Numbered from the stretch's first letter, positions 1,900-54,908 are shown. The stretch: 64,000 nucleotides of DNA from Chloroflexota bacterium (GCA_005882775.1 VBDY01000122.1:9317-73316), one strand, 5' to 3'. Notes: generated by a model from the letters alone, not told the origin. Translations and numbers: made by a program.

Positions 1900-2325
1900 C
1901 TTCTCAGCCGGCCTGACCCGATGGACCTGCGGCAGCCCAGCCGCTGGGAAGGGGAGCAGGTCCGCCGCACCCCTGCGCTCGAGCTCCTGTTTGAGACTGG
2001 TGGTCTCGGTGATCAGGCGCTCCACGTCGATCGTCATGCAGCTCGGCCGGTAGGACTCGAGCTTCTCCAGGCCCTGTCGGAGCTTGGCCACCGCGCCTCG
2101 CCAATTGCCCCGGCGCCAGTGGTAGAAGCCAACACCGACCTGCAGAATCCCCTGGTAGAGGTAGCGGACCGGGTCCGGCTCTTTGATCCAGATCGCTTCC
2201 AGGGTTTCGTGCTGCTCGAAGAATTCGCCCCGGTTGAACTCCTCGATCCCGCGGAGCAGCCCGTCGGGCGGCGCGTCGGAGCAGCGCAGGCTGGGGCCTG
2301 GCTTCGATTTACGGATCGGCGTCAC
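1885..2325 (-). CDS. DUF309 domain protein
   Basis: FNRGEFFEQHETLEAIW...YQGILQVGVGFYHWRRGNWRGA matches the DUF309 signature. Convergent with the Trx-like gene, with a 15-nt overlap. Confidence 0.6.
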   Translation of the reverse strand: MTPIRKSKPGPSLRCSDAPPDGLLRGIEEFNRGEFFEQHETLEAIWIKEPDPVRYLYQGILQVGVGFYHWRRGNWRGAVAKLRQGLEKLESYRPSCMTIDVERLITETTSLKQELERRGAADLLPFPAAGLPQVHRVRPAEKLAGR

Positions 2326-3557
2326 GCCCGGGCTTGGGCGGCGGAAGCCGAAACGCGCGCGGTGTCGCCGTCCGGCGAAGCCGCTGGCAGCTCCAGATAG
2401 AAGGTTGTGCCCTTGCCCTCCAGGCTGTTCGCCCAGGCGCGGCCGCCGTGAGCTGCGGCCACCCGCCGGAGCAGGTAGAGGCCCAGCCCCTGGCCGCGCG
2501 CCGGCTGCTGGCTGGCCGAAGGCAACGGCCCGAACAGCTCGGCCAGCCGCTCCGCCGAGATGCCCGGACCATCGTCCTTGACGATCAGCTGAAAGCGGTC
2601 GGCTGTGGGCTGGCGCAGCCGCAGCTGGACAACGGTGGCCGATCGGGCATGCGCAAACACGTTCTGCAGCATCTCGTCCAGCGCAGCCTCGAGCAGAGCG
2701 GCGTCGCCCCAGACCTCGCCCTGCACGTCCAGCTGGACGCGAAGCTCCACGCCTGCCTCATCCATGCGCTGACGCACTCTGTCGGCCGATGCGCGCGCCA
2801 CCGAAATCAGGGAAACGCGGACGGTGAAAGCGAGCTTGAGGGGTAGCCGCGACATGAGCATCACCTGGTCCGCGATCCGCATCACCGTTTCGGACTGCAT
2901 GGCCAGGCGGCGGGCGACCAGCGGCATCTCCTCGGCGGGCACCTCGTTGTGGCTGAGCATGTCTGCATAACCTCGGATGATCGCCAGCGGCTCCTCCACT
3001 TCATGCGAAGCCAGCCGGACCGCCGATACCGGAGTGCGCGCACCGGCGCGATCGGTGGACTCTGTTCCTCCGTCGGCGTCAAGGCGCGGACTGATCAAGC
3101 CGGCGACCACGAGCAGAAGATCAACGTCCCGTTCGCTGAAGATCCTGGCGCCCTTTCCGAGCACCGCCAGCGTGCCGTACGGCGTCCCATCCGCCACGGT
3201 GATCGGGACGCCCAGGTAGCTGGTCACGTGCAAGAGGTGGCGCATGGGCAGGTCCCTGAAAGGCTCCCGCTTGGCGGCGTCGCGGACATTGACCGGGGCG
3301 CCGTCCTCGCCCGCGCCCGCGAAGGTGTCGTCGAGGGGTATCCGGAGCCCGATCTCGATGGTCGGCCCCTCGGCGCTGACCGCATCCACCATCTCGAGTG
3401 CGCCGTCGTCGATCCGCGCCACAAATGCGGCGCGTACGCCCAGAGCCTCCACCAGGCACTCGAGCGACCGCTGAATCAACTCGGGCAGCGGCCGGCTCAA
3501 ATGCGGCAGCAGCATGCGGCGCACGTGGGACAGGTGCGACTGCCGGTCAGGGCTCAT
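2322..3557 (-). CDS. Sensor histidine kinase with GAF domain
   Basis: GAF-like N-terminal region, a HisKA helix (ASHEVEEPLAIIRGYADML) and a HATPase_c segment (DDGPGI...GQGLGLYLLRR...GKGTTFYLELP). The start is taken at the internal Met (MSPDRQ); the ORF extends to 3665. Confidence 0.8.
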   Translation of the reverse strand: MSPDRQSHLSHVRRMLLPHLSRPLPELIQRSLECLVEALGVRAAFVARIDDGALEMVDAVSAEGPTIEIGLRIPLDDTFAGAGEDGAPVNVRDAAKREPFRDLPMRHLLHVTSYLGVPITVADGTPYGTLAVLGKGARIFSERDVDLLLVVAGLISPRLDADGGTESTDRAGARTPVSAVRLASHEVEEPLAIIRGYADMLSHNEVPAEEMPLVARRLAMQSETVMRIADQVMLMSRLPLKLAFTVRVSLISVARASADRVRQRMDEAGVELRVQLDVQGEVWGDAALLEAALDEMLQNVFAHARSATVVQLRLRQPTADRFQLIVKDDGPGISAERLAELFGPLPSASQQPARGQGLGLYLLRRVAAAHGGRAWANSLEGKGTTFYLELPAASPDGDTARVSASAAQARA

Positions 3558-3588
3558 AGGGGGCGCCCAGTTTATAACACGAGTTACC

Positions 3589-3616
3589 GCCTCTATTGCG
3601 CGCGTTACGGCGCGCG
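3589..3616. repeat. 28-nt GC-hairpin motif gcctctWttgcgcgcgttacggcgcgcg, copy 1
   Basis: Near-identical copy (1 mismatch) at 54436-54463. It contains the self-complementary GCGCGC-ttacg-GCGCGC. It lies 32 nt from the divergent kinase start and ~60 nt upstream of the PHP gene. Confidence 0.6.
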
Positions 3617-3676
3617 CTTTGGGCCGGCGGGCACGGCTCGGGCCTGGATCGGCCCTCGCCTCCATAATGTCCCAAC

Positions 3677-4552
3677 ATGGCTGACCTTTCCAACGGTCAC
3701 GCCAACCTGCACCTGCATACGGTCTTCAGCGACGGCGAGCTCCAGCCTGCGGATGTCGTCAGGGCGCACGCCCGGGCCGGGTTCGCTGCAATCGCGCTTA
3801 CCGACCACGACACCCTGGCCGGGGTTGACGCCCTCGGCGATCTGCAGGGTTGGGGCGTGCGCATCCTTTCCGGCGTGGAGCTGTCGATCGAGGACGAGCC
3901 CGACCGCGGCCTGATCGAGGCACACCTGCTCGGCTATGCCTTCGACCTGGACGACGCCTCCATGCGTCTCCGCCTCCGCCTGGCGAGCGAAGAACGGGAG
4001 ACGCAGAAGCGCGAGACCGTCCGGCTGCTCGCGGAGGCCGGGTATCCAGTCGACTGGGAGGCGGTGCGCAGGCGCGCGCTGGGGAACGTGGGCAAGCCAC
4101 ACATCGTAGCTGCGGTGGAGGCGGCCAGTCGCCAGGTCTCGCGCGAGGAGCTTTACGCCGTCATGGGTCCGGGTGGCCGGGCCCACGTCGGCCGAGCCCA
4201 GGACCTCCGCCTGGACGACGCCGTGGCGCTGGTGCGTGCCGCAGGCGGCGTTGCCGTGCTCGCCCACCCGGGAGTCTATGACCACGTGGAAGACCTCGAG
4301 CTGTCGTTTCGGACCTGCGCGGCCGCTGGTGTGGGCGGTCTTGAGGTCACCTACCCGCAAGACCCGCAGGATCCCTACGGAGAACGAAGCAGGAAGTTGA
4401 TGGACCGCTTCGCTGAGGTCGCCCGCCGATATGGTTGGGTCGCGACCGGAGGCGATGATTTTCACGGACCGGTGGTCACCCCTCGGATCCGGCTGGCAGC
4501 CTGGACAGCCACCCCGGCCTCATGCGTCGACGAGCTACTGGCTCGGGTCTGA
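3677..4552 (+). CDS. PHP-domain phosphoesterase
   Basis: NLHLHTVFSDG...ALTDHDT...GVEL...HP...GGDDFHG histidine-rich PHP motifs. Confidence 0.8.
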   Translation: MADLSNGHANLHLHTVFSDGELQPADVVRAHARAGFAAIALTDHDTLAGVDALGDLQGWGVRILSGVELSIEDEPDRGLIEAHLLGYAFDLDDASMRLRLRLASEERETQKRETVRLLAEAGYPVDWEAVRRRALGNVGKPHIVAAVEAASRQVSREELYAVMGPGGRAHVGRAQDLRLDDAVALVRAAGGVAVLAHPGVYDHVEDLELSFRTCAAAGVGGLEVTYPQDPQDPYGERSRKLMDRFAEVARRYGWVATGGDDFHGPVVTPRIRLAAWTATPASCVDELLARV

Positions 4553-9310: not shown

Positions 9311-10732
9311 ATGCTGCTGGTAGAAGTCCGCCGCCTTGACGTCGCGCCCTCGAGCGAGCAGTTCTGGACCATCGTCTCCCGGATCAACGGCCCCGAGTTC
9401 ATGGGGGTCCTCTATCGGGCCCGTGAAGCAATTTTCGACAGCGCGGGGATCAGCTTCACCATCGACCTGCTCAGCAAGTTTCTCCAGTTCGACGTCACCC
9501 GCAGCTGGTCTGCCGCCGACGAAGGCGAGCTTTTCTTTGGATCGGCGGCTGTGGTGGGTTGGCTCCGGGTCCGCCGGCCGGGGTCGGCCACACTCCGCGA
9601 GCTGCGCTCCGACGACATTCACTTCATGGAGCTGGAACACGCTGCCAAGCCGGCGTTCCTCGAGGTGGGACTCGCCTACCGCCCGGGCGGAGAAAAGATC
9701 AGGACCGATTTCCTCAAGCGGATCCGCTCTGCCGCGGGAGAGGTGATGGGCCAGGAGATCGGTACGCCATCGTCCTGGCCGGTGCTGGCCCCGATTGGAA
9801 CGCACAACTTTGAGGCCATCCGCAAGTCCCGACAGGCAGCCTACGAGGCCTCGCCCGAAGAGAGCGCGGCGATGGCCGCGTTCACCACGCCTGAGATTCG
9901 GGCCCTGATTCGCGACCTGGAGCGAGTGGGGTCACTGACGGTTTCGGATCTACCCAAGATCCTGGGGGAGGCCCAGGGCACCGCCGTCGCCGGCCGGCTG
10001 GGTGAGCTGCGCAGCCTCGGCCTGATCCAGTCCGAGTACGTCATCGTCTGTTCCCGGACCGGCAACGCCGTCCTGCGTACCGACGACCCCAACAAACTCT
10101 CCAAGATGGCGCCGGACTGGATGAAGTGCGCCTGCGGCCGCGCCCTCAACGAGGAGCGGGTCGACCAGGTGATCATGCCGACCGAGCGCTCCGCCGAGCT
10201 GAACGACAAGAGCAAATGGATGACCACCCTGGCGCTCACCGCGCTGCCGCGGATCGGAATCAGCCGGGACTCGGTGATCGTCGAGGGCACGCCCTCGTCG
10301 ACCGACATCGTCCTCGATCTCAGCGGCGACCTGGTCCTGGTGGTTCTCAAGGACCGCGAGTTCAACCTGTCGGATGCGTACTCGTTCAATGCCAAGGTCT
10401 CCCGGATCAAGGCCAGCGAGGGCGTGATCGTGGCCAACGAGGGTATGTCCAGCGATGCCAAGAAGCTGGTCCAGGAGGAGCTCGGTCCCCAGCGCGCCCG
10501 GGTATCCGATCCGTTCCGGGTCACCTATATCGAGGGGCTGCAGAACCTCGAGCACGAGCTCGGCCGGGTGGTCGAGCGGCGGCGCAGGCAGTATTTCCTG
10601 CGCGCAATCGGTGACCTGGCCACCATCCAGGGTCTCAACATCGGCCAGCTGGCGCTGGCCAAAGTCGAGGCTGGCGGCCGGTCGGCTAAAGATGCCGTGA
10701 TCGCAGCGGAGGCGGTCGCCGCCGAGGCTTAG
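9311..10732 (+). CDS. Hypothetical 474-aa multidomain protein with a central winged-helix-like segment and a possible nuclease-like C-terminal region
   Basis: ATG at 9311 is preceded by AAGGAG. A central HTH-like segment (EIRALIRDLERVGSLTVSDLPKILG...GLIQSEYVIVCSRTGNAVL) is present. The C-terminal beta-rich block TDIVLDLSGDLVLVVLKD is loosely PD-(D/E)xK-like. I do not recognise the family. Confidence 0.6.
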   Translation: MLLVEVRRLDVAPSSEQFWTIVSRINGPEFMGVLYRAREAIFDSAGISFTIDLLSKFLQFDVTRSWSAADEGELFFGSAAVVGWLRVRRPGSATLRELRSDDIHFMELEHAAKPAFLEVGLAYRPGGEKIRTDFLKRIRSAAGEVMGQEIGTPSSWPVLAPIGTHNFEAIRKSRQAAYEASPEESAAMAAFTTPEIRALIRDLERVGSLTVSDLPKILGEAQGTAVAGRLGELRSLGLIQSEYVIVCSRTGNAVLRTDDPNKLSKMAPDWMKCACGRALNEERVDQVIMPTERSAELNDKSKWMTTLALTALPRIGISRDSVIVEGTPSSTDIVLDLSGDLVLVVLKDREFNLSDAYSFNAKVSRIKASEGVIVANEGMSSDAKKLVQEELGPQRARVSDPFRVTYIEGLQNLEHELGRVVERRRRQYFLRAIGDLATIQGLNIGQLALAKVEAGGRSAKDAVIAAEAVAAEA

Positions 10733-10850
10733 TTTCTCTAGGGCAAGAGGCACCTACTCAGAGTGACGTCTCAAACGCGGGTGTGGCACGTCCCGCGCCA
10801 CCCGCGTGGGGCGACGCCCCGCCTGTAACGTTGCAGCAGAGTAAGTAAGG

Positions 10851-26274: not shown

Positions 26275-29200
26275 GTTTAGCGTGGCGGCCATGGGCAACG
26301 TCATACCGTGGTCGCAGATTCACCCCACCGTCAAGAGCGAGGCGCCCTTCGTCAGCGTCCTGATCATCGACCCCACCCGCCAGCTGTGCGTCAGCGAGCA
26401 GATCCCGCTGGACCAGGAGGTCCTGGTTCATCCTGATGTCGCTGCCTCCGAGACCATCGCGGCGGCGCAGCAGGCTGCCGCCCGGGTGGCCAGCATGTAC
26501 CGTCAGCGTCTCAAGCAGGCGCCGACAGGGCCGGCATCCCCGGGCAGGCCTCGAATGGCGACGCCAGATCAGACACCGCCCCGATTCCGTGTGCTCAAGG
26601 GCGGATTGCGCCCGGCGCGCTAGCCCTAAGCGTTCGAGACCTGGTGCTCCTCTTCCAGAGAGTGCTCCGGGGCTGAGCCGTCCTCCGGTCCCCTTCTCCG
26701 CACGCTCCGCGAGTGAATCGTCCTTGGAGAAGAGGACGATCTGATGGTCCTGGCCGAGCCGGCCCAGCTCATCGAGCGCAGCCCGCATCCGGCGCCGGTC
26801 GGCATGCACCAGGGCCTCGTCGAGGAGCAGGGGAGGGGGTTCGGCGTTGCCTCCGATGATGCGGGCCAGTGCCACCCGCTCCAGCAGGTAGATCAGCGAG
26901 CGCGTTCCCAGGCTGAGGTTGTCCACGTCTCGGAAACCGCGCTGCTCCTGGGACTTTACCTGCAGAGTCAGGTCGTCCCCGACCTGGACGTCGCGATAGC
27001 GCCCGTTCGTGATCGGCGACAGCTGTCCCTGTAGTTGCGACTTGAGGCGGGGGATAACCGCGCGACGGACGGACCGGGCAGCCGCTTCCAGGGTTTCGAT
27101 GGCGAGGTCGTACGCGTGCGCCTCGACCTCCAGATGTTGGAGCTGTTCCCTGACGGCGCTGATCTCTTCTTCCAGGGAGGCGACGTCCCCGATCTGCATG
27201 AGCCGGTCGTTGAGCAGACCCTCGGCCCGAGCCCGCTCCTCCTGGGCCCGCTCCTTGGCCGCCCGGTGCTGGTCTCGCTGACGCTCCAATTCCGCCAGCG
27301 GCAGGGCGCGGTACTCGGCGACCCGCTGCGGGTCGAGGCCACGCATGGTTTCGGCGAGCTGCGATTCGAGGTCGGCCACCAGCTTGGCGAGTGAGGCGCT
27401 CTCCTGTTCCCCGGCGACCGTCTTCAGCTGATCGTCCAGGTCGCTCAGCCGGGCGGTCGAGCCGCGGTGCGCCTGGGCCCGGTCGACCGCCGCATCCCAC
27501 GCCTGTGCCGCCGCTTCTGGGTCCGTGGCATTGATACCGGCCGGTCCGTAGATGGCGGACAGCTGGCGGGTGTAATCCTCAGCCTTTGTCTGCTCGGCCT
27601 GGGCGCGCTCGGCCGGCTGCCGGAGCTGTTCGAGCTGGGCGTCGAGCTGCTCGATCCGGGTGCGCACCTGCTGGGCGGCACGGGCTGCTTCACAGGAGAT
27701 GATGAAGTCGCGACCGGCCGCGAGCGCCTCTCGCCGGTCGAAGCCTAAGCGGTCGAGGACGCTGTGCAGTCGCTGCCGAAGCTGCTCGCGCTTCTCGTCC
27801 AGAGCCGCCTCCGCGCGCGAAGCGTCCTGGGCCCTCTGGCTGGCTGCCGCCCAGGCGAGCCCGTCCTGGGCGAGCACATCGATCAGTTTGGCCGTCTGTT
27901 CCACGGACTCGTCCGTCGGGGCCGGCTGCGAAAGGCCCCACGACCCGACCATCTCCCGCAACGCCCGGCCGGCTGTCTGGGCCTTCTCCTCGAGCTCGGT
28001 CGCCTGCCGGTCCAGCTCCAGCCTGGTGGCGTCGTAGCGGACCTTCTGCAGGTGCTCCACCAGCGCTTGCTGGAGCTCCCCGGATGACCGAACGCCCCAG
28101 GCCGAGAGAATCTCACGGCGCTTGGTCCGGGCTTCGTCTTTGGCCCGGAGCCGCCGGTCCACCTCGCGGTGAGCGGCCGCCCGGACCCAGATTCCGATAC
28201 CGGTCGCCAGCACCCCCATGCCCAGGAGGAAGAAGGCGGTGCCGACCAGGGCCAGCGGCATGCCGCCCGAGAGTGCCAGGAACGCGATCAGGATGGCCAG
28301 CGCCGTGAGTAGCAGCCCGCCGAGCCAGGCGCCCAGGAAAATGTTCTGTCGCGCCCGGGCCCGCTCCGCCATCGCTTCCTCCCGTCGCATCGCCTCTTCC
28401 GCCTGCTGGCCGGCCTTGATCACGTCCGGCACTTCCTTGTAGCGGGCGATGTCGTGCTTGAGCTGCTCCAGCCGCGGCGGCAGCTCGGCTCCGGCTCGGG
28501 TACGTGCCTCGAGGGCGACGATGTGCCGCTCGCGCCACTCCGCATAGTGCCGCTGAAACTCGATCTGCCGGGCGGTCCAGTCCAGGTTTTGCCCGATCAT
28601 GCCGGGATGCCGCTCAGCGATCCGTCGCACCTCCTCGCCGGCGGCGTGCGCGCGCAGATGCACGTCTGGCGCCTGGGTGTCGGCGTAGGTCAGGGACGAG
28701 ACCAGCTCACGAACGAGCGGCTCTTCTTTCAGGGCCAGCTCATCGACGCCGCGGGCCCGGTTTTCCTGGCCCTGCGCTTCCGAGTCCAGCCGGGCGCGCT
28801 CGGCCTCGAGGTCCTTGACCTGGTCGGCAACCTCGGCAGCGCGCTTTAAGAAATCGTTCTGGGCTTCGCGAGCCGCGCGGAGGTGGCTGCGAAGCTCGAG
28901 CACTTTTGGATGGCGCTCCACCGCGAGCGAGGCAAATGTGGCGTGGTCCTGCTGGCGCTGGGTTTCCTCGCGAATTGCGCCCTGCAGCTGTGCCACATGG
29001 TCGAGCCGGCGGCGCGCCTCCTCCAGGCGCGAGCCGAGCACGGCGGCTTCCAGCATCTGCACGATCGACAGCTCAGCCTCGGTCAGGGCGGCCACCGCCT
29101 CCCGTTTCTGAGCGAGCTCATCCACGGCGGAGCGGGCTTTGCGGGCGGCCGTGATCTGGCGCTCCAGGTCGTTCAGGCGGGCTTCGAGATCGTGCAGTGG

Positions 29201-29794
29201 TCCACTCCTGGCCCGCGGCCGCCCGATTCTGTGGACCCGCTCCTGCCGGAGCCGGTCGAGCACCTTGGAGGCGGTGCGGTCGGGATGGGCCGAGTCCGCC
29301 AGGGCGGTGATCGCCTCCTTGATGCTGCCCGCGTCCTCGAGCCGCATCACCTCGCTGCGCGAGATGCAGGCGGTGTTGCCGTAGATCTCCCGCGTGACGC
29401 CGAGCAATTGCCGCCCCACCTGGAGACTTCCCCAGGGGTCGCGCTCGAACCGCTCGGTGATATCGTCACCGGCCGAGAGGTCGGTGACACGGACCGTCTC
29501 GGCATCGAGGTCTCGATCGATTCGCAGACGGGTCCCGTCGTCGAGCTCGACCTCGAGTCCGAGGCCAAAACCGCCACCCTGCCAGGGCCGCCACCGGTCG
29601 CTGTTCTCAACCGCTGCCGCCCGGCTTCGCTGGCGGTCGGACGCTAACCCGTAGAGCCCGGTGAGGATCGCCTCCTGGAGGGTGGATTTCCCCGCCTCGT
29701 TGGGTCCGACGACCAGGTTCATGGACTTTCCGAACCTGAGGTCTGTGCCCCGAAGGCTGCCAAAGCCGTCGATCTGGATCCGGGTGAGCCTCAT
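26264..29794 (-). CDS. SbcC/YhaN-like SMC-fold ATPase with two TM helices in place of a zinc hook
   Basis: Walker A GPNEAGKST at the N-terminus, long coiled-coils, a central hydrophobic hairpin (NIFLGAWLGGLLLTALAILIAFLALSGG...LVGTAFFLLGMGVLATGIGIWV), a C-terminal Walker B LLLDEAL and an H-loop-like HQIVLFSK. The ATG overlaps the upstream stop (ATGA). The ORF continues ~150 aa of low-complexity sequence past the expected end. Confidence 0.8.
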   Translation of the reverse strand: MRLTRIQIDGFGSLRGTDLRFGKSMNLVVGPNEAGKSTLQEAILTGLYGLASDRQRSRAAAVENSDRWRPWQGGGFGLGLEVELDDGTRLRIDRDLDAETVRVTDLSAGDDITERFERDPWGSLQVGRQLLGVTREIYGNTACISRSEVMRLEDAGSIKEAITALADSAHPDRTASKVLDRLRQERVHRIGRPRARSGPLHDLEARLNDLERQITAARKARSAVDELAQKREAVAALTEAELSIVQMLEAAVLGSRLEEARRRLDHVAQLQGAIREETQRQQDHATFASLAVERHPKVLELRSHLRAAREAQNDFLKRAAEVADQVKDLEAERARLDSEAQGQENRARGVDELALKEEPLVRELVSSLTYADTQAPDVHLRAHAAGEEVRRIAERHPGMIGQNLDWTARQIEFQRHYAEWRERHIVALEARTRAGAELPPRLEQLKHDIARYKEVPDVIKAGQQAEEAMRREEAMAERARARQNIFLGAWLGGLLLTALAILIAFLALSGGMPLALVGTAFFLLGMGVLATGIGIWVRAAAHREVDRRLRAKDEARTKRREILSAWGVRSSGELQQALVEHLQKVRYDATRLELDRQATELEEKAQTAGRALREMVGSWGLSQPAPTDESVEQTAKLIDVLAQDGLAWAAASQRAQDASRAEAALDEKREQLRQRLHSVLDRLGFDRREALAAGRDFIISCEAARAAQQVRTRIEQLDAQLEQLRQPAERAQAEQTKAEDYTRQLSAIYGPAGINATDPEAAAQAWDAAVDRAQAHRGSTARLSDLDDQLKTVAGEQESASLAKLVADLESQLAETMRGLDPQRVAEYRALPLAELERQRDQHRAAKERAQEERARAEGLLNDRLMQIGDVASLEEEISAVREQLQHLEVEAHAYDLAIETLEAAARSVRRAVIPRLKSQLQGQLSPITNGRYRDVQVGDDLTLQVKSQEQRGFRDVDNLSLGTRSLIYLLERVALARIIGGNAEPPPLLLDEALVHADRRRMRAALDELGRLGQDHQIVLFSKDDSLAERAEKGTGGRLSPGALSGRGAPGLERLGLARRAQSALEHTESGRCLIWRRHSRPARGCRPCRRLLETLTVHAGHPGGSLLRRRDGLGGSDIRMNQDLLVQRDLLADAQLAGGVDDQDADEGRLALDGGVNLRPRYDVAHGRHAKRRL
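26291..26623 (+). CDS. Hypothetical protein (conflicts with the 3' extension of the YhaN-like ORF on the opposite strand)
   Basis: Diverse, protein-like composition, preceded by the palindromic motif. The overlapping minus-strand tail is low-complexity. Which of the two is real is unresolved. Confidence 0.25.
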   Translation: MGNVIPWSQIHPTVKSEAPFVSVLIIDPTRQLCVSEQIPLDQEVLVHPDVAASETIAAAQQAAARVASMYRQRLKQAPTGPASPGRPRMATPDQTPPRFRVLKGGLRPAR

Positions 29795-30885
29795 GTGTCG
29801 AAGGCGTCCAGTGCCAGCTGAAGGGCGCGGTCGACGGTCTCGTGGGTTTCGCCTTTTGCGCTGCGCTGGTCGACCAGCTTGCGGACGAGCTCGCCACGGC
29901 TGGTGAATTCCTGGGCCATCGCGTCCACGTCGTGAGCGATCCGGGACTGGTCCCGGAACTCGAGATGGGCGAAGCCGTCTCCGCACTCGAGCGTGAGCGC
30001 CTGGGGGTCCATCTCCAGTGACCTGGAGCGCTCGCCGGTGAGGACGGCTCGGATGACCGCGCCCTGTAGACCCCTACTCTCCCTCAATGCCTGGAGGGCC
30101 TGGCGCACGTGTTCGGGGCTGGTCATGCCGGTGATATCGATCGTCTCCTCGATGAAGCGTCGCTGGTTGATGTCCTCCAGGTTCACCACCACCGACCCGT
30201 CGTCGCCCACCGTCACCAGGGCAACGCAGTGTCTGCCAGCTTCGTCCCACCCCAGCGGCTCGGGGCTTCCCGGATAGGTGATCCACCTGTCGGTCTGGGC
30301 GGCGTGGTAGTGGCCCAGCAGGGCGTGCTGAAAACCGTTCTCCTTCACCTGGGTCGGAGTGATGGGCGCGAAGGGCGTCGTGCCCTCGGGCAGCTGGCTG
30401 ATGTCAGAAGCGTGGAGCAACAGAAGGTTGTGCCCACCTTCCACCGGGGTCGCGTCCCGAAGCGGCGCTTCGGCCACGTCGGGCCGGGTGAAACCGGCCG
30501 CCCAGACGGTGACGTCGTGAAAGGGATAGGCGCGCAACTCCTCGTGCGCCGCGATCGTCACGTTCTCCGGCCAGCGCAGGTAGCGGTAGGGCGAGCTGGG
30601 GACCGCCGGGTCCCGGTTGCCGGGCGCGATCAGGACCGGCCGCCCGGCATCGCCCAGGGTCTCGACCACGAAGGCCGCCGTCTCGCGCGTGATGTGGTCG
30701 TGTTCAAAAAGGTCGCCACCGCAGGTGATCAGGTCGCTGTCCTCCTGGCGCGCTCGGTCGACTATGCGGCTCAGCGCTGCCCGTAGGTCCTCGCGCCGGC
30801 GCTGTCCTGCCGCCCCTAAGAGCCGCTGTCCGGCAAACGACCGATCGAGATGCAGGTCAGCAAAATGCAGCAGGCGAAGGGCCAC
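29791..30885 (-). CDS. SbcD/YhaO-like Mre11-family nuclease (calcineurin-like phosphoesterase)
   Basis: GTG start (VALRLLHFADLHLD), GDLFEH, and the GNRD and GHYH metallophosphatase motifs. Confidence 0.8.
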   Translation of the reverse strand: MALRLLHFADLHLDRSFAGQRLLGAAGQRRREDLRAALSRIVDRARQEDSDLITCGGDLFEHDHITRETAAFVVETLGDAGRPVLIAPGNRDPAVPSSPYRYLRWPENVTIAAHEELRAYPFHDVTVWAAGFTRPDVAEAPLRDATPVEGGHNLLLLHASDISQLPEGTTPFAPITPTQVKENGFQHALLGHYHAAQTDRWITYPGSPEPLGWDEAGRHCVALVTVGDDGSVVVNLEDINQRRFIEETIDITGMTSPEHVRQALQALRESRGLQGAVIRAVLTGERSRSLEMDPQALTLECGDGFAHLEFRDQSRIAHDVDAMAQEFTSRGELVRKLVDQRSAKGETHETVDRALQLALDAFDT

Positions 30886-30998
30886 AAAACCCCCGTAGGA
30901 ATTCGATTTCTGCCCGACGAAGACGCGGTCGGACGGCGAAGCAGCGCCAATTATAGAGGTTGTGCGGCAGCACCAAGACAACTTGGTAACTTGACCGC

Positions 30999-31994
30999 AT
31001 GGGCTCGTTCGAGAAGGGCGATCGGGGCGCCCGCATCTTGAAGCTGCAAACACTGCTCCAGGGCAACCCCCGAGGGCTCTTTCCCAGGGAGATCGCCCGC
31101 CGGACCGGGGTAACCACTCGCACCACATATCGCGACATCGCCGCGCTCGAGTCCATGAATGTCCCGATCTACGAGGACGAGGGGCGAATCATCATCGACC
31201 CGAACTACTTCGTCGCGCCGGTCAAATTCACGCTGCGTGAGGCGATGGCGCTGCTGATCGGGGTTCGGCTGATGCATCGTCATTCGGACGAGGCGGATCC
31301 GGACATCGCGGATGCGTTTACCAAGCTGGCCGCGGTTCTGCCGGCGCCGGTGGCCGAGTACGTACACGCGACCGTGCGCCAGATGGCCGAGCGTCCGTCC
31401 AACCCGGGCTTTTCCCGGGTATTCCAGGCCATCGCCCTGGGCTGGGCCGGACGCAAGGTGGTACGCATCTGGTATCCGTCGGCATCCGGCGACCTCAAGC
31501 CGCGCCTGATCGAACCGTATTTCGTCGAACCATCGCTAATCGGTCACAGCAGCTACGTGGTGGCTCGCGATCGCGACCTCCAGGAAATGCGCACCTTCAA
31601 GCTGGAACGGATTGACCGCGCCGAGTCGACGCACCAGACCTACGACATCCCCCGCGAGTTCGACATCAATGCTTATTTGTCAAAAGCCTGGGGCATCTTT
31701 CACTCAGGCGAACCGGTTGAGGTGCGCCTCCGGTTTTATCCGCCGGCCGCCGCCCGTGTGCGCGAGACGATCTGGCATCCGTCACAGCAGCTCAGCCCCG
31801 GTCCTGAGGGCGCGGTCGACATGAGCGTGACCGTCGCCGGCACGGTTGAGATCACACCCTGGATCCTGGGATGGGGAGATGCTGTCGAGGTCCTGGCGCC
31901 GGTCGATCTGCGCGGGCGGATTGCAGAGACAGCGTCGAGACTGGCGGATCGCAACGGCGCCGTTGTGGCGCGCCGGGCTACGGTCGGCGGTTAG
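30999..31994 (+). CDS. HTH-WYL-WCX transcriptional regulator (PafBC-like)
   Basis: N-terminal HTH (TGVTTRTTYRDIAALE) and a WYL domain (VRIWYPSASGDLKPRLIEPYFV). It is divergent from the sbcD/sbcC-like pair, separated by 113 nt. Confidence 0.8.
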   Translation: MGSFEKGDRGARILKLQTLLQGNPRGLFPREIARRTGVTTRTTYRDIAALESMNVPIYEDEGRIIIDPNYFVAPVKFTLREAMALLIGVRLMHRHSDEADPDIADAFTKLAAVLPAPVAEYVHATVRQMAERPSNPGFSRVFQAIALGWAGRKVVRIWYPSASGDLKPRLIEPYFVEPSLIGHSSYVVARDRDLQEMRTFKLERIDRAESTHQTYDIPREFDINAYLSKAWGIFHSGEPVEVRLRFYPPAAARVRETIWHPSQQLSPGPEGAVDMSVTVAGTVEITPWILGWGDAVEVLAPVDLRGRIAETASRLADRNGAVVARRATVGG

Positions 31995-32197
31995 GCAGCC
32001 GCCTGGGGCGACTTTCCGCACTTAGGGCAGACGCTCTTGGCCTTCAGCTCCGCCCTCCGAAACGCGTGGCCGCCGCAGTGCGGGCACAAACCGCCCGGGC
32101 GCAGGCTGTGCTTGCGCTCCTCCTGCTGGATCCGCTCGCGGACCCGGCTCTCCTGCGGTGTGTCGACGTAGCGTGGGTCCGAAGGGTCGTGGGTCAC
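31991..32197 (-). CDS. Small zinc-ribbon protein
   Basis: CPHCG...CPKCG. ATGA overlap with the upstream UDG-like gene. Confidence 0.5.
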   Translation of the reverse strand: MTHDPSDPRYVDTPQESRVRERIQQEERKHSLRPGGLCPHCGGHAFRRAELKAKSVCPKCGKSPQAAA

Positions 32198-32940
32198 GCT
32201 GCCTTCATCTCCCCAGGCTCCAGGTCCGAGGCGCGCATCGAATCCGCAAGCGCCCTCCCGATCACCTCGGGCCGGTACGCCACGTCCTTCTGATATGGGT
32301 GAACACTCAGAATGACCGGAACGGACCGATTCTCCTGGCTATAGGTCAGCCGCTGGCCGTGCATCGCGGTCATCGGCTTCCATCCCTCCCAGCTGTTCTG
32401 GTTGCGCCACCAGAAATAGCGGGCCATCGGGCCGCCCATGGCGACGATCGCGCGTGGGGCAAGCGTGGCAAGCAGGCCTTCCAGGTGGCGCTCGCCGCAC
32501 TGGTTAACCGCCGCCTCCGTCACCCGGTCGGGGTTCTCGGTGGCGCAGCGGACCGACCAGCTATGAAAGGCGAAGTCGAAAGGGTCGTGCTTGCCGGGCG
32601 TCTGGCCAAACCGCCGGCGCAGCTCGAGCAGCACCGCCCTGACGAAGCGGAAGTAGGGCTGCACGGTCTCGGATGCCAGGTGCTGCTGGAGAGCCGACTC
32701 GCGGTCGAGCCAGGTCTGAAAAGCCTCGTTGCTCGTGCTCGCCGGATCCAGCGGGCTCGGGCTCAGGAACAGGATCGGAGCATGCGGGTTGCCCAGACCG
32801 ATCTGGGGGCGCCGCAGTGGGCGGGCCAGATCGTGGCAGGGGCTATCTGAGCCGCGGTCGGCTTCAGCGATCGCGCATCCGTGCAGCCTCTTCAGGGCGT
32901 CCGAACCGAAGAATTGCAGGTACTCAGACGCTTTGCTCAT
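32194..32940 (-). CDS. Uracil-DNA glycosylase superfamily protein (divergent family)
   Basis: UDG-fold order of motifs: APILFLSPSP (motif-A position) ... AIVAMGG ... VPVILSVHPYQ (motif-B position). The start is chosen at MSKASEY; the ORF is open to 33126. Confidence 0.5.
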   Translation of the reverse strand: MSKASEYLQFFGSDALKRLHGCAIAEADRGSDSPCHDLARPLRRPQIGLGNPHAPILFLSPSPLDPASTSNEAFQTWLDRESALQQHLASETVQPYFRFVRAVLLELRRRFGQTPGKHDPFDFAFHSWSVRCATENPDRVTEAAVNQCGERHLEGLLATLAPRAIVAMGGPMARYFWWRNQNSWEGWKPMTAMHGQRLTYSQENRSVPVILSVHPYQKDVAYRPEVIGRALADSMRASDLEPGEMKAA

Positions 32941-33018
32941 GCTTGTAGGGACGCGCGCCACGGCCGCATCTTGCACGCGCGCCGGGGCCATTTCTGGGAC
33001 CGGGCCTACCATGAGCCC

Positions 33019-33336
33019 GTGAACGTACCCTCGATCACGGCCGAGGAGGCGCACCGGCAATTGCAGCTCGACCCCCGCCCGCGGGTGCTGGATGTCCGGG
33101 AGCCGTGGGAATACGCCGCCGGCCACGTACCCGGCGCCCAGCTGATTCCGCTCGGCGAGCTGGAGGCGCGAGTGGCCGAGGTTCCCCGTGACCAGCCGAT
33201 CCTGTCGATCTGCCAGGTGGGCCAGCGAAGCCTGGCCGCGGCCGCCTTCCTGATCAGCCAGGGGTACCGGGATGTCACGAATATCGATGGCGGTACGACT
33301 GCCTGGCTCGAACGCGGCTACCCCGTCGATTTCTGA
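33019..33336 (+). CDS. Single-domain rhodanese (sulfurtransferase)
   Basis: GTG start. Active-site loop CQVGQRS, with REPWEYAAGHVPGA and a GG..AW tail. Confidence 0.7.
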   Translation: MNVPSITAEEAHRQLQLDPRPRVLDVREPWEYAAGHVPGAQLIPLGELEARVAEVPRDQPILSICQVGQRSLAAAAFLISQGYRDVTNIDGGTTAWLERGYPVDF

Positions 33337-33355
33337 GCCTTTGGCCTGATTCTGC

Positions 33356-33378
33356 GACAGACAGCTGTCGCAACCGCC
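33356..33378. repeat. 23-nt GACAGCTGTC-containing motif, copy 2
   Basis: gacagacagctgtcgcaaccgcc, ~85 nt upstream of the rmuC TTG start. Confidence 0.6.
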
Positions 33379-33452
33379 CGCTTGACTTTACCCGTGCACA
33401 ACACCACCATTGACCGGACGGATCGTCCTCTAAGCGTCTTGAAGGAGTCCTC

Positions 33453-34562
33453 TTGAACGTCCTGGTATTCGTCCTGGCGGTCGTCGCCCTCGCCGCGGTA
33501 GCGGTAGCGATCTTCCTGGCCCTCAGCGGTCGCCGGACGGAGGGAACGGTCTCCACCGAGGCGGTTTTGCGTGCCGTGGCGGAACTCGGTTCTCTTAAAT
33601 CACAGGTCGAGACGGTTTCCTCTCAGCAGGTCTCCTTTGCCCAGACGCTTGGCAATCTTCACCTCGCGATGCAGGGGGTTGAGAGCAAGGTCCTGGAGAG
33701 CTCGGCGGGTGTGAAAGATGCCCTCGGCCGCGAGCTGCAGGAGGCGCGGGTGGCGGTGGAGCGGATCAAGGTCGACGCCGAGTCGCGTCACCGGATGGAG
33801 GAGGAGGTTCAGGCCTCGGCCCGGCGAATTGAGACGGTCCTGCTGGGGAGCCGCACGCGGGGCGCCGCCGGCGAAAACATCCTCGAGGACGCTTTCCGGC
33901 AGTTTCCAGCCGAGATGATCGAGAGCAACTTCCGGGTGAACGGCAAGGTGGTCGAGTACGCGCTCATCCTGGCTAATGGCAAACGGCTCCCGATCGATAG
34001 CAAGTGGCCGCTGCCCGAGCTCCTCGATCGGCTTCCCGACGAACTGTCAGACCCGGCACGCGAGGCAGCCGCAATCAACGAGGTGGAGCGGGTGCTCCGC
34101 ACCAAGGTGCGGGAGGTTCGCCAGTACATCGATCCAGCCTGCACCCTCGGGTTCGCGGTCGCGGCCGTTCCGGACGCGGTCTTCAATGCCTGCCGGCGCG
34201 GCCACCTCGAGGCCTACCGGGAGGGCGTGATCCTGATGCCCTACAGCATGACCGTCCCCTACGTGCTGGCATTGTTCCGCCTCCACCTCCAGTACGCACG
34301 GTCGATCGACGTCGAGAACCTGGAGGGCTACCTGCAGCAGATCGAAGACAGCATCGGGGCGTTGGACCGATCTCTCGAGAACAGTATTGCCCGGGGCAGC
34401 ACCATGATCCAGAACGCCTTCAACGATTGCAAACGCACCCTGGGACAGATGCGTGGGGCGGTGGCGGCGCTGCGGGCCATTCCGCAAGAGGCCTCGGCCG
34501 AGGGAGCGGCCGGCGATCTACCGTTTCCGGCAGAGGCCGAGCGGCTCACCCTGATTCGTTAG
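33453..34562 (+). CDS. rmuC: DNA recombination protein RmuC
   Basis: TTG start with GAAGGAG SD. N-terminal TM anchor plus coiled-coil, then the RmuC core (GENILEDAFRQFP...YALILANGKRLPIDSKWP). Confidence 0.85.
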   Translation: MNVLVFVLAVVALAAVAVAIFLALSGRRTEGTVSTEAVLRAVAELGSLKSQVETVSSQQVSFAQTLGNLHLAMQGVESKVLESSAGVKDALGRELQEARVAVERIKVDAESRHRMEEEVQASARRIETVLLGSRTRGAAGENILEDAFRQFPAEMIESNFRVNGKVVEYALILANGKRLPIDSKWPLPELLDRLPDELSDPAREAAAINEVERVLRTKVREVRQYIDPACTLGFAVAAVPDAVFNACRRGHLEAYREGVILMPYSMTVPYVLALFRLHLQYARSIDVENLEGYLQQIEDSIGALDRSLENSIARGSTMIQNAFNDCKRTLGQMRGAVAALRAIPQEASAEGAAGDLPFPAEAERLTLIR

Positions 34563-42473: not shown

Positions 42474-43385
42474 CTAGCTGCTGGCGGCCGCCGCGGTCGA
42501 GGCGGGGGCGACGCCCCGCTCATCCCGCACCAACCAGTTGAGCGCGTTCACGTAAGCCTTGACTGCCGCCTCGAGCACATCCACGGACACGGCTTTCCCA
42601 AGCACCACCCGGCTCCCCTGGCTCAGGGTGACAACCGCCTCGCCCAGGGCGTCGCTACCGCGGGTGGCGGCGGCCAGGCTGAAGTCTTCGAGCTCGGGCG
42701 CAAGCCCGGTGATTTCCTGGACGGCGCGAAACGCCGCGTCCAGGGAGCCTGAGCCTGAGGCGCTCGCGCTCCGCAGCTCGCCGTCGATCTCGAGGGAAAC
42801 GGTGGCGGAGCTGGAAACCCCGCTCTCGGCGTGGACCTGGAACTCGATCAGGGCAAACCGCCCGGGTGCCGCCCGGCCAAGCGCCTCGTCGGCAGCCAGC
42901 CGCAGGTCTTCTGGGTAGAGGGCGCGTTTGCGCTCCGCCAGGTTGAGGACCAGGGAGTAGACCGCGCCCAGGTCTCCCTCTGCCAAATCGATCCCCATCG
43001 CCGACAGTTCCTCGGCCAACCGGCGGCGGCCGGCGGGGCTGCCAACCTGCCCGAACTGCGGAGCGTAGCCGATGTCGGCCGGATCGATGAACGCCGGCGC
43101 CAGCGACTTGGGACGGCGTGGCGGGCTGAAGGCGGCCCGCGGAAAGGCGCTGCGTACGTCTTCGATCCATCTCTCCCAGCCGGAGTAGTCCATGGTGGCG
43201 AGCATCGCGACGTAAGCGTCGAACCGCACCAGCAGGGCTGCGGGCTGGTCGTGGTGCTTGACGATCAAGCTGGTTCCGCTCTCCTCGAGCGCCTTGAGGA
43301 TGGGGTCGAGGTTTCGAGCGAGCTCCGAGGCGGGGATGACCTTTAACACGCCAGCCATCGTAGTCCCGTCCATGCGCTCGGTCAA
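42474..43385 (-). CDS. Fusion: Phd/YefM antitoxin-like N-domain plus LeuA allosteric (dimerisation) domain
   Basis: N-terminus VIPASELARNLDPILKALEESGTSLIVKHHDQPAALLV follows the Phd/YefM pattern. The C-terminus SGSGSLDAAFRAVQEITG...VVLGKAVSVDVLEAAVKAYVNALN resembles the LeuA C-terminal regulatory domain. No toxin gene is adjacent. The start may be the internal MAGVLK (43358). Confidence 0.7.
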   Translation of the reverse strand: MTERMDGTTMAGVLKVIPASELARNLDPILKALEESGTSLIVKHHDQPAALLVRFDAYVAMLATMDYSGWERWIEDVRSAFPRAAFSPPRRPKSLAPAFIDPADIGYAPQFGQVGSPAGRRRLAEELSAMGIDLAEGDLGAVYSLVLNLAERKRALYPEDLRLAADEALGRAAPGRFALIEFQVHAESGVSSSATVSLEIDGELRSASASGSGSLDAAFRAVQEITGLAPELEDFSLAAATRGSDALGEAVVTLSQGSRVVLGKAVSVDVLEAAVKAYVNALNWLVRDERGVAPASTAAAASS

Positions 43386-52152: not shown

Positions 52153-53229
52153 ATGGCCACAGCGACCGCGACCACACGCAGCCGGCTCGAGGAGATCCTC
52201 GGAGCCGATGCCAAGCCTCTTCTCGACCATGAGTGCAAGACGGTCCTCAAATCGCAGCTCCACCTGCCGGGGCCTACGTTCGTGGACCAGGTCTGGACGC
52301 TGAGCGACCGGCCAACCCGCGTCCTTCGCAGCATTCAGTCTCTGTTTGACAACGGCCGGCTCGCCGGAACCGGTTACCTGTCCATACTGCCGGTCGATCA
52401 GGGGATCGAGCATTCCGCCGGCGCATCCTTCGCGGCCAACCCGGAATACTTCGACGGCGAGAAGATCGTCGAGCTCGCCCTGGAGGGGGGTTGCAATGCG
52501 GTGGCATCAACCTTCGGAGTGCTCGGCTCGGTGGCGCGCAAATATGCGCATCGAATCCCATTCATCTGCAAGATAAACCACAACGAGCTCCTCACCTATC
52601 CCAACAAATACGACCAGATCATCTTCGGCACGGTGAAACAGGCCTGGGAGCTGGGCGCCGTCGCCCTGGGCGCCACCATCTACTTCGGCTCGGCCGAGTC
52701 CGACCGCCAGATCCAGGAGATCGCGGTTGCCTTCCAGGCGGCCCACGAGCTGGGCATGGCGACCGTGCTCTGGTGCTACCTGCGCAACTCCGCCTTCGTC
52801 AAGGACGGCGTCGACTACCACCTGGCCGCGGACCTGACCGGCCAGGCCAATCATCTGGGCGTGACCATCGAGGCCGACATCATCAAGCAGAAGCTGCCCG
52901 AGACCAACCGCGGCTTCGAGGCCTTGAAGTTCGGCAAGACCACCTCAAAGGTCTACGACAAGCTGTCCAGCGACAACCCGATCGACCTGACCCGCTACCA
53001 GGTGATCAATTGCTATCTCGGCCGCAGCGGCCTGATCAATTCCGGTGGTGCATCCTCGGGCGAAAGCGACCTGAAAGAGGCGGTCAAGACCGCCGTCATC
53101 AACAAGCGAGCGGGCGGTATGGGCCTGATCACCGGGCGCAAGGCCTTCATGCGGCCCATGCGTGACGGGGTTGCCATCCTGAACGCGGTGCAGGACGTCT
53201 ACCTGATGGACGAGGTCACGGTCGCCTAA
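52153..53229 (+). CDS. fbaB: Class I fructose-bisphosphate aldolase (DhnA/FbaB type)
   Basis: Near-collinear match to my memory of E. coli FbaB, e.g. [86 protein letters not shown] and [10 protein letters not shown]. Confidence 0.85.
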
Positions 53230-53312
53230 ACTTCGCGACACGACCGCTATCACGCAATCCGCACCTGAGGCTGCCTGATCACGTGCCGGAGCCGTGAGAA
53301 TATTCGAAGCCG

Positions 53313-54431
53313 ATGGCTCTGGCGGCTCGCCTCGATGCGTTCCGGCGCCGCTGCGATGAGCTGACCAGCCTGCATGCGGGCTATCCCTACAACCTGGCCT
53401 ACGACTACACGCCTCTGCTGCCCTTCTTCCAGTACACCATCAACAACCTCGGCGATCCCTACGTCAACGGCAACTACGGCATCCATTCGCGCGAGTTCGA
53501 GCGCGAATGCCTGGCCTGGTTTGCCCGGCTCTACGGCCTGGAAGACCACTGGGGTTACGTCACCAGTTGCGGAACCGAAGGCAACCTGTACGGCATCTTC
53601 CTCGGCCGCGAGCGGTATCCGGACGCTGCCCTCTACTTCTCAAGGGATACGCACTACTCGGTCCACAAGGCCGCCCGGCTCCTCCAGATCGCGCCCGTGG
53701 CGATCGATTCGCAGTCGAATGGCGAGATCGACTACGCGGACCTGGAGGCGCAGGTGGCGCGGCGCGGAAGTCGTCCCGCCATCGTGAACGTCAATCTCGG
53801 GACTACTCTGAAAGGCGCGGTCGATCGCATCGACCGGGTGGCGACCATCCTGGACGGGGTCGGCGTGCCCTTTCACCTCCACTGCGACGGGGCGCTCGGC
53901 GGGTTGCTACTTCCCTACATTCAGGGCTCGCCGGCAATCGACTTCACCAATTACCCGATCGGCAGCATCGCGGTCAGCGGCCACAAATTCATCGGATCGC
54001 CGATCCCGTGCGGGATCGTCCTGGCCAGGCGGGCACACGTCAAGCAGATCGAAACCGCGATCGAGTACATCGGCAGCACCGACACCACCATCATGGGCTC
54101 GCGCCAGGGCCTGGCCGCGCTCTTTCTCTGGTACGCGATTACCGATCGCGGTGATCGCTTCGCCGAGGAGGTGGCGACCTGCGTGGGAAATGCCGAGTAC
54201 CTGCGCGATGGGCTCGCCGAGCTGGGCCTGGACCCGCTGCTGAACGCCTGGTCCAACACGGTCGTCTTCCGCAAGCCGTCCGCCGACCTGTGCCGCACAT
54301 GGCAGCTGGCCACCCAGGGCGAGCTCGCTCATGTGGTGGTGATGCAGAACATCGGCAGGACCAAGATCGATTCGCTGCTCGAGGACCTATCCGGAGCCCG
54401 CGACCGCCAGCCCCGGGCCGCAGTCTCCTAG
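53313..54431 (+). CDS. PLP-dependent histidine-decarboxylase-family (group II) decarboxylase
   Basis: WGYVTSCGTEGNLYG, YFSRDTHYSVHKAARLL and the PLP-Lys context SGHKFIGSPIPCGIV match the bacterial Hdc family. The substrate is unknown. Confidence 0.8.
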   Translation: MALAARLDAFRRRCDELTSLHAGYPYNLAYDYTPLLPFFQYTINNLGDPYVNGNYGIHSREFERECLAWFARLYGLEDHWGYVTSCGTEGNLYGIFLGRERYPDAALYFSRDTHYSVHKAARLLQIAPVAIDSQSNGEIDYADLEAQVARRGSRPAIVNVNLGTTLKGAVDRIDRVATILDGVGVPFHLHCDGALGGLLLPYIQGSPAIDFTNYPIGSIAVSGHKFIGSPIPCGIVLARRAHVKQIETAIEYIGSTDTTIMGSRQGLAALFLWYAITDRGDRFAEEVATCVGNAEYLRDGLAELGLDPLLNAWSNTVVFRKPSADLCRTWQLATQGELAHVVVMQNIGRTKIDSLLEDLSGARDRQPRAAVS

Positions 54432-54435
54432 TACT

Positions 54436-54463
54436 GCCTCTTTTGCGCGCGTTACGGCGCGCG
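54436..54463. repeat. 28-nt GC-hairpin motif, copy 2
   Basis: gcctcttttgcgcgcgttacggcgcgcg, 21 nt before the ATG of the small ORF. A TAGAAT -10-like hexamer lies between. Confidence 0.6.
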
Positions 54464-54484
54464 GGGCCGGACTAGAATCGGCGC

Positions 54485-54667
54485 ATGCCGCGCCTTCGCG
54501 CTACCGACTCAGGACAGGTCTACAACATCGACCTCCCCGAGCTGAAGGTGACCCGCGACCAGGACGGGATCTATGTCCTCCATGGCCGTGGCCACTTCCA
54601 GGCCTTCGAGACGCGCGAGGAGGCCTTCGCCCGTAAGAAGGAAATCGACTACGCGACTTTTCGCTGA
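54485..54667 (+). CDS. Small conserved-looking hypothetical protein (60 aa)
   Basis: ATG start, charged composition, no family recognised. Confidence 0.5.
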   Translation: MPRLRATDSGQVYNIDLPELKVTRDQDGIYVLHGRGHFQAFETREEAFARKKEIDYATFR

Positions 54668-54671
54668 GTAG

Positions 54672-54908
54672 CTAGGGGTCGCCCATCCAGTCGGCAGCGT
54701 GGGGGAGGGGATGGTGGCCGTGGGTGGGCTGGAAACGCAGCACACGTTCGATATCTCGCTCTCGGTAAAGGCGCTCGCGGCGGATCCCCTGCCTGTAGCT
54801 CTTGAGGACCCCGCGGCTGACGTAGGCGTAGAGGGTGGCTGGCTTGACGCCGAGCATGGCGCAGGCCTCGGTTGAACTCAGATACGGCTCACCCTGTATT
54901 TGGATCAC
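54672..54908 (-). CDS. Small HTH DNA-binding protein (excisionase/MerR-AlpA-like HTH_17)
   Basis: LSSTEACAMLGVKPATLYAYVSRGVLKSYRQG. Divergent from the HMGL synthase gene. Confidence 0.7.
   Translation of the reverse strand: MIQIQGEPYLSSTEACAMLGVKPATLYAYVSRGVLKSYRQGIRRERLYRERDIERVLRFQPTHGHHPLPHAADWMGDP

Follow-up and report, generated by a model that had tools for sequence, protein, structure and literature searches.

A duplicated GC-rich hairpin in an uncultured Chloroflexota genome is probably the 5' part of a small PATE-like mobile repeat

A 28-nt GC-rich hairpin motif occurs twice, some 51 kb apart, in the 64,000 nucleotides of Chloroflexota DNA analysed here as a whole (the window). Our analysis revealed that this motif is the 5' third of a repeat unit of about 76 nt. 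We read it, with a probability of roughly 78%, as the 5' subterminal hairpin of a non-coding, non-autonomous mobile repeat of about 76-83 nt that is PATE-like, that is, of the IS200/IS605 type. Dispersed near-identical copies, sharp ends, empty orthologous sites, nesting, a remnant and assembly breaks combine into a pattern characteristic of non-autonomous mobile repeats.

The first-pass annotation of the window had placed the motif, gcctctWttGCGCGCgttacgGCGCGCg, at 3589-3616 and 54436-54463, and both positions were borne out on the plus strand. The repeated segment is slightly longer than described, comprising 32 nt on the same strand (3585-3616 and 54432-54463) with 30/32 positions identical. 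Its 19-nt core, GCGCGCGTTACGGCGCGCG, was present exactly twice compared with 0.14 occurrences expected from shuffled sequences, only 1 of 100 shuffles reaching two matches, and two matches to the 5' 20-mer of the repeat, allowing up to three mismatches, were seen in none of 100 shuffles. The duplication of the hairpin motif is well beyond chance. The reported gene context was likewise confirmed: copy 1 lies between a GAF/HATPase histidine kinase gene on the minus strand and a PHP phosphoesterase gene on the plus strand, and a 60-aa ORF preceded by a TAGAAT box follows the second motif after 21 nt. Copy 1 is a full-length unit, laid out as follows.

2322-3557, minus strand: GAF/HisKA/HATPase histidine kinase, most likely start at 3557
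3584-3587, plus strand: TTAC directly 5' of copy 1, a target-like tetranucleotide that is flank and not element
3588-3663, plus strand: copy 1, full-length unit (nhmmer 80.5 bits, E 4e-23; covariance model 102.7 bits)
3598-3617, plus strand: hairpin 1, the core of the annotated motif, GCGCGCGT-TACG-GCGCGCGC, starting 10 nt from the element 5' end
3621-3639, plus strand: hairpin 2, GGGCCG-GCGGGCA-CGGCTC, its loop carrying a 6-nt indel polymorphism among copies
3640-3655, plus strand: hairpin 3, GGGCC-TGGATC-GGCCC, stem invariant and two loop positions variable among copies
3656-3663, plus strand: 8-nt 3' tail TCGCCTCC, so that hairpin 3 ends 8 nt from the element 3' end
3663-3668, plus strand: CATAAT, -10-like box of the PHP gene, abutting the element 3' end; ancestral flank, not element
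3677-4552, plus strand: PHP phosphoesterase, given in some sources as 3',5'-nucleoside bisphosphate phosphatase/TrpH

Folded as RNA or as single-stranded DNA, the 76-83-nt unit forms three GC-rich hairpins on one strand and a 2-bp closing helix, with G-T pairs among its stems. Between a preceding AC and a following GG, its consensus reads C, T or no base, then GCCTCTATT GCGCGCGT TACG GCGCGCGC TTT GGGCCG GCGGGCA CGGCTC GGGCC TGGATC GGCCC TCGCCTCC. Identity among copies is about 90% or higher, with an abrupt loss of similarity on both sides; copy 1 aligns end to end with the copies at four loci outside the window (L026; L028/L039; L029/L032/L034; L031/L033/L035), whose flanks are unrelated. The annotated hairpin is real, but not with the 6-bp stem and 5-nt loop first proposed, as folding predicts for copy 1 an 8-bp stem (GCGCGCGU/GCGCGCGC) with a U-G closing pair and a 4-nt UACG loop, and 7 bp for copy 2. 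This stem is invariant in seven of the eight aligned copies. Apart from the two known copies, neither nhmmer nor a covariance model run with its filters off detected the unit in the window, the next best score being 14.6 bits. Two weak covariance-model candidates, 10764-10844 and 43111-43187, were inspected and discarded as unrelated. The former (plus strand, 13.7 bits) is a separate GC-rich hairpin cluster, ACGCGGGTGTGGC...GCCACCCGCGT followed by GGGGCG-AC-GCCCC, in an intergenic region bounded by a gene end at 10732 and a small membrane-like ORF starting at about 10852.

An exact 20-mer scan (TTGCGCGCGTTACGGCGCGC) of JGI metagenomes uncovered four more loci. The 14 contigs retrieved comprised four chance matches and ten contigs with the longer block; nine of the latter represent the four non-window loci named above, and the tenth (L037) is the copy-1 locus of the window. 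Flanks are unrelated among these four loci and the window, and in each case the motif runs on into the same unit of about 76 nt. All copies among the 20-mer matches were short, none being a long element with these ends. The annotation had argued that 27/28 identity across unrelated loci implies selection. With the same unit, at over 90% identity, at four further loci with unrelated flanks, and with orthologous sites that lack it, this argument is unsupported, and the identity between the window copies is explained by a recent common origin of dispersed-repeat copies.

In 185,579 species-representative genomes, the exact 20-mer gave five matches with unrelated flanks and hosts, which is chance level, and no family member, so that either the family is narrow or the host genome is unrepresented there. 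Viral contigs yielded no match to the 5' 20-mer or to the 3'-end pattern. Proteins identical to those of the window were found on ENA and JGI soil metagenome contigs, with close homologues labelled Chloroflexota or Candidatus Limnocylindrales, and the host of the unit is an uncultured soil Chloroflexota lineage (matches named Limnocylindrales-like). One locus sampled from two populations (L028:2277-2353 and L039:1839-1921) differs by a 6-nt indel and one substitution in the hairpin 2 loop (GGGCCG-T-CGGCTC versus GGGCCG-GCGGGCA-CGGCTC), and the short variant is identical to that at the unrelated locus L026:7734-7813. Gene conversion between copies, recurrent deletion or replacement by re-insertion are all possible origins of this pattern.

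The presence or absence of the unit at orthologous sites is the decisive evidence of insertion polymorphism. Contigs from strains nearly identical to the window were uninformative on conservation, and the comparison is with more distant relatives. At the kinase-PHP spacer, the window carries the element, as do L040 (PHP protein 90% identical), where it is composite, and L053 (78%), a contig that starts inside the element, as is typical of assembly breaks at repeats. It is absent from the same spacer in L052 (90%), L041/L042 (89%), L043/L044 (76%) and L054 (74%). Whether or not they carry the element, relatives have retained CATAAAATGGG or CATAGAATGGG 9 nt upstream of the PHP ATG, and the -10-like box CATA(A/G)AATGGG together with the ATG persists in L040, L052, L053, L043/L044 and L054. 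L041/L042 retain the -10 region only in a merged, compacted version; L041 was therefore set aside as a clean empty site, being probably a deletion derivative that merged two -10 regions, and L052, L043 and L054 are the better references. The element 3' end abuts the PHP -10 box in the window (0 nt) but is separated from it by 7 nt in L053 and by 16 nt in L040, which points to a hot spot with either independent events or subsequent indels. At the position homologous to the 5' flank, element-free relatives read TGAC (L041) and TGGC (L052); the TGAC of L040 compared with the TGGC of L052 shows that the AC before the element is target and not element.

The composite in L040 consists of nested or tandem copies, which nhmmer resolved into segments covering model positions 3-26, 3-48, 4-80 and 54-82. 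One full copy lies inside another, and a further 5' fragment stops exactly at the TTAC of the hairpin-1 loop, where the next copy begins. The element-free spacer of L052 holds a small hairpin of its own (L052:1025-1060, GGCCGA-AGATC-TCGGCC), loosely like hairpin 3, a resemblance that may be fortuitous; the hairpin may also be left over from a copy that was excised or decayed, or be native and draw insertions to the site. In the output of some gene callers the histidine kinase begins at the ATG at 3665 and has 447 instead of 411 aa (extension 3558-3665, minus strand; L014, L015), and this 36-codon extension, read through the element, is probably an annotation artefact of the insertion.

Copy 2 is a 5' fragment that retains hairpin 1 only. 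Its surroundings are as follows.

ending at 54431: PLP-dependent, histidine-decarboxylase-like gene, stop codon TAG at 54429-54431
54431-54434, plus strand: GTAC directly 5' of copy 2, overlapping the last base of the decarboxylase stop codon
54435-54464, plus strand: copy 2, 5' fragment with hairpin 1 only, stem 54445-54452 / 54457-54463 (nhmmer 26.2 bits, covariance model 33.8 bits)
54473-54478, plus strand: TAGAAT, -10-like box 6 nt before the ATG of the 60-aa ORF; not element
54485-54667, plus strand: 60-aa ORF, with TAGAAT-N6-ATG upstream

This fragment is present in L046 (96%) and absent from L047-L049 (89%), which nevertheless keep TAGAAT-N6-ATG and the 60-aa ORF. Immediately after position 54464, the window sequence GGCCGGAC TAGAAT CGGCGC ATG aligns with GGCGGGAT TAGAAT CGGCCC ATG of the element-free L047. 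The 60-aa ORF itself has no Pfam match, and an identical protein occurs in 89 collection blocks. It is convergent with a gene for a 61-78 aa HTH_17/MerR_1 protein (54672-54857/54908, minus strand) that is excisionase/BldC-like, and the pair is conserved in the relatives L046 and L047. The decarboxylase is clustered at 52153-56278 with a DeoC/LacD-family aldolase and an HMGL-like gene (isopropylmalate/homocitrate synthase-type). Its closest homologues outside the Chloroflexota are cyanobacterial, and the group could be a small specialised-metabolism cluster. A little further downstream, a 103-nt direct repeat of 74% identity (56814-56916 and 58606-58708) is accounted for by two tandem paralogous DUF3352 genes (56312-58363 and 58557-60149).

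These orthologous sites bear directly on the main idea of the first-pass annotation, a shared transcription-factor site, as an operator or promoter element through which the PHP gene and the 60-aa ORF would be co-regulated. Both copies do lie upstream of plus-strand genes in which a TANNNT box precedes the start codon by 6-8 nt, and the core is palindromic. However, the motif is 9 nt from the -10 box at copy 2 and 46 nt at copy 1, other copies sit between convergent genes or after stop codons, and the conserved block is 76 nt long and asymmetric, far beyond operator size. Orthologous promoters keep their -10 boxes and starts without the motif in L041/L042 (compacted), L043/L044, L052, L054 and L047-L049. 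Conservation of the TAGAAT box and ORF start in a motif-free relative means that the promoter of the 60-aa ORF is independent of the motif, and the proposed co-regulation loses its footing; we consider a shared operator very improbable. Boxes of the TANNNT type 6-9 nt before an ATG or GTG without a Shine-Dalgarno sequence (TAGAAT-CGGCGC-ATG, CATAAAATGGGCGCACC-ATG and TAAGAT-GGCCGC-GTG) were noted in the window at 3663-3679 and 54473-54487 and in L031/L033, L040, L043, L047, L052, L053 and L054. Judged from their sequence, they suggest that mRNAs of this lineage are commonly leaderless or nearly so.

Two direct repeats on the same strand, 50.8 kb apart, might also be the attL and attR sites of a 51-kb integrated island. 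The stretch between them includes an IS110-family transposase and defence-like genes, and the small HTH_17, excisionase-like gene adjoins copy 2. Against such an island, the unit is also found at four unrelated loci elsewhere, neither end carries an integrase, base composition is flat across both boundaries, the genes on either side of the boundaries are housekeeping genes kept in synteny in repeat-free relatives, and each copy has been gained or lost independently among relatives; we give this reading next to no credence. A tRNA-linked att site was dismissed, the window containing no tRNA or tmRNA genes, as was an integron attC site, for which the core sites RYYYAAC and GTTRRRY and a cassette array context are absent.

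The IS110-family transposase (DEDD_Tnp_IS110 + Transposase_20) is encoded at 24990-26009 on the plus strand, with non-coding flanks at 24904-24989 and 26010-26263. Its 3' non-coding region of about 250 nt could, by analogy with other IS110/IS1111 elements, encode a bridge-type guide RNA. The unit as an IS110-family derivative was tried and rejected: it has no similarity to the IS110 flanks within 24904-26263 (nhmmer, covariance model), and the flanks of its copies share only ..AC. IS110 elements use a long, specific target of about 11-14 nt, and so short a target as ..AC is incompatible with IS110-type specificity. Adjoining the transposase, 26264-34562 holds genes for a 1240-aa AAA_23/SMC-like ATPase (minus strand), a WYL/WCX/HTH_11 regulator (30999-31994), a weak UDG-superfamily protein (32194-33126, minus strand) and an RmuC-like protein (33453-34562). 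This defence- or repair-like patch may be a small mobile or defence island within housekeeping synteny.

AC precedes the unit at every one of eight independent 5' junctions (TTAC, GTAC, GAAC, GTAC, AAAC, ATAC, TTAC, TAAC), and seven of the eight read [A/T]AC, with only two to three target bases fixed. No terminal inverted repeat was found on comparing the 5' end, GCCTCTATTGCG, with the reverse complement of the 3' end, GGAGGCGAGGGC, nor any complementarity between the outermost 20 nt of the two ends. Similarly, the flanks of five full copies revealed no target duplication, there being no direct repeat across them (for example, ..GAGTTAC / ATAATGT and ..CAGTAC / GGGTCAG). At five of the six loci, a co-oriented gene ends 3-30 nt before the unit begins, the distances from its stop codon being 3 nt (copy 2), 10 nt (L028/L039), 18 nt (L031/L033/L035), 21 nt (L026) and 30 nt (L029/L032/L034). 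Genes downstream of these five copies are co-oriented or convergent, and copy 1 alone sits between divergent genes. The annotation had named non-conservation in relatives or a generic REP element, and random orientation relative to genes, as refuting its reading; the former was largely observed and the latter was not, all six loci being co-oriented with a flanking gene. An insertion or retention bias of the repeat fits this co-orientation equally well as regulation does.

The same placement could point to an RNA kept by selection for its function, be it as a terminator or stabiliser in the 3' UTR or as a small RNA, whose copies resemble one another by functional constraint and not by recent transposition. 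Strand-consistent placement after stop codons (5/6 loci) agrees with this, as do three stable hairpins with a folding z-score of -2.6 (plus strand). Variable columns are also richer in unpaired positions (13/31 unpaired versus 7/42 paired; Fisher p = 0.03), a bias that is only suggestive among eight closely related copies, and one compensatory change, G-C to C-G, occurs in the 2-bp closing helix. Evidence to the contrary came from several sides. Rfam 15 gave no match in the window at gathering thresholds and, around copy 1 at E up to 10, only chance-level eukaryotic RNAs. Simple scans found neither a canonical sigma-70 promoter nor a U-tract terminator inside the unit in either copy, and the single terminator-like match near copy 2 (54420-54437) is weak and spans the stop codon. 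The unrelated flanks leave no conserved upstream promoter, orthologous sites flanked by proteins of 74-90% identity lack the element and yet retain the flanking promoters, and copy 1, lying between divergent genes, cannot be a 3' UTR. The nested self-insertion in L040 would be hard to explain on this account. A functional RNA, which includes the small structured RNA of the first-pass annotation, is thus quite improbable.

Returning to the mobile repeat, the lack of inverted repeats and target duplication, the subterminal hairpins on one strand, the target on the 5' side only and the insertion at a TTAC loop lead us to infer mobilisation in trans by an HUH/Y1-type enzyme. Such a transposase would recognise the hairpins in single-stranded DNA, and insertion would take place 3' of a short target, as in IS200/IS605 elements and PATEs, REP/RAYT being a related case. 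Copies might be tolerated, or perhaps be mildly useful, after stop codons, where hairpins at the mRNA 3' end would serve as terminator or exonuclease block. The preference for sense orientation after stop codons is compatible with target choice and also with selection for mRNA 3'-end hairpins that do no harm or are of help, as proposed for REPs. GC skew at the loci was too weak and inconsistent to show a replication-strand bias. Searching by tblastn with three queries, IS608, IS200 and ISDra2-like TnpA, returned no Y1 transposase in 562 kb of highly redundant DNA, a tiny fraction of any genome, and no cognate autonomous IS with the same ends appeared in those 562 kb or among the 20-mer matches. 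A more far-reaching version, in which the unit would be a new single-strand-transposed micro-element with unlike end hairpins and a central hairpin, moved by an enzyme other than a classical TnpA, homing to post-stop sites and exposed TTAC loops, its own among them, and rewiring promoters at leaderless -10 boxes, strikes us as improbable.

Together, these findings describe a previously undescribed family of PATE/REP-like small mobile repeats, of a known kind, in uncultured Chloroflexota. The window copies are alike through shared origin and not through co-regulation of the PHP gene and the 60-aa ORF, so annotation need not invoke such co-regulation; the repeat also explains the 36-residue extension of the kinase and the breaks in metagenome contigs. 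The findings thereby record a small non-autonomous repeat, seemingly active until recently, in soil Chloroflexota of a lineage that has no cultured member. Populations with flanking proteins about 90% identical differ in their insertions, and the element could consequently be used as a strain marker. Should the cognate transposase be found, the unit would lend itself, as a compact natural substrate, to work on single-strand transposition and on the choice of targets in a GC-rich genome, where insertion follows TTAC-like sequences, those in hairpin loops included.

Among known systems, classical MITEs carry terminal inverted repeats and usually a target duplication. The unit has neither and is like them (Correia/NEMIS, ERIC, RUP) in being short, non-autonomous, intergenic, structured and insertion-polymorphic, and in abutting promoters or gene ends.

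A REP-like element was the one among the three roles offered by the first-pass annotation that came near the evidence. As in REP, BIME and REPIN sequences, the palindromes are GC-rich, extragenic and probably transcribed, with uneven abundance between close relatives (PMC3733652, PMC3337134). Most REPs are found shortly downstream of coding regions in the same orientation, and they bear a GTAG or CGTC tag at one end of the palindrome (PMC3733652). Taken strictly, this relationship would make hairpin 1 a palindrome kept by a domesticated RAYT and the 76-nt unit a BIME-like mosaic of palindromes, which suits intergenic GC-rich palindromes of 20-40 nt that mostly sit just downstream of co-oriented genes, the solo hairpin-1 copy in the window (copy 2) and G-T stem pairs fitting folding at the RNA level. 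In contrast to REPs, however, hairpin 1 has no GTAG/CGTC tag or degenerate form of one beside it (flanks CTATT / CTTTG; other strand CAAAG / AATAG), every copy is single or direct with none of the inverted dimers of REPINs, the whole 76-nt, three-hairpin unit moves as one block with fixed ends, and no RAYT gene was seen by tblastn in the 562 kb compared. A strict REP/RAYT assignment is therefore unlikely, and the PATE-like reading is kept.

IS608 inserts 3' of TTAC, and IS608 and ISDra2 transpose by single-strand 'peel and paste'. The unit likewise inserts 3' of a short sequence (here TTAC, GTAC, TGAC, TAAC, ATAC, AAAC or GAAC), has subterminal hairpins in place of inverted repeats and includes a copy at a hairpin-loop TTAC, which fits a single-stranded target. 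Unlike IS608 and ISDra2, it is 76 nt long without a transposase gene, and only the last two target bases are invariant. Targets in the IS200/IS605 family are typically 4-5 nt, compared with which the two to three fixed bases of the unit are weaker. IS200/IS605 ends are otherwise characterised by subterminal hairpins, a conserved target tetranucleotide flanking the left end and no duplication (PMC6006769).

PATEs are short non-coding derivatives of IS200/IS605-type elements described in Haloquadratum walsbyi (PMC3119063). Unlike them, the present unit resides in a Chloroflexota bacterium and not in a haloarchaeon, has a third, central hairpin, and comes with no same-ended IS200/IS605 element or tnpA/tnpB among the DNA compared. 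The end palindromes of IS608 and of homogeneous PATEs resemble each other (PMC3119063), whereas hairpin 1 (GCGCGCGT/GCGCGCGC) and hairpin 3 (GGGCC/GGCCC) differ in sequence, stem length and loop. In all else compared, the unit follows the PATE pattern (PMC3119063): it is too short to encode a protein, lacks terminal inverted repeats and target duplication, carries palindromes near both ends on one strand, has a short conserved oligonucleotide directly 5', and displays strain-specific insertions, element-in-element insertions, terminal-only remnants and the identity above 90% of the 'homogeneous' PATEs.
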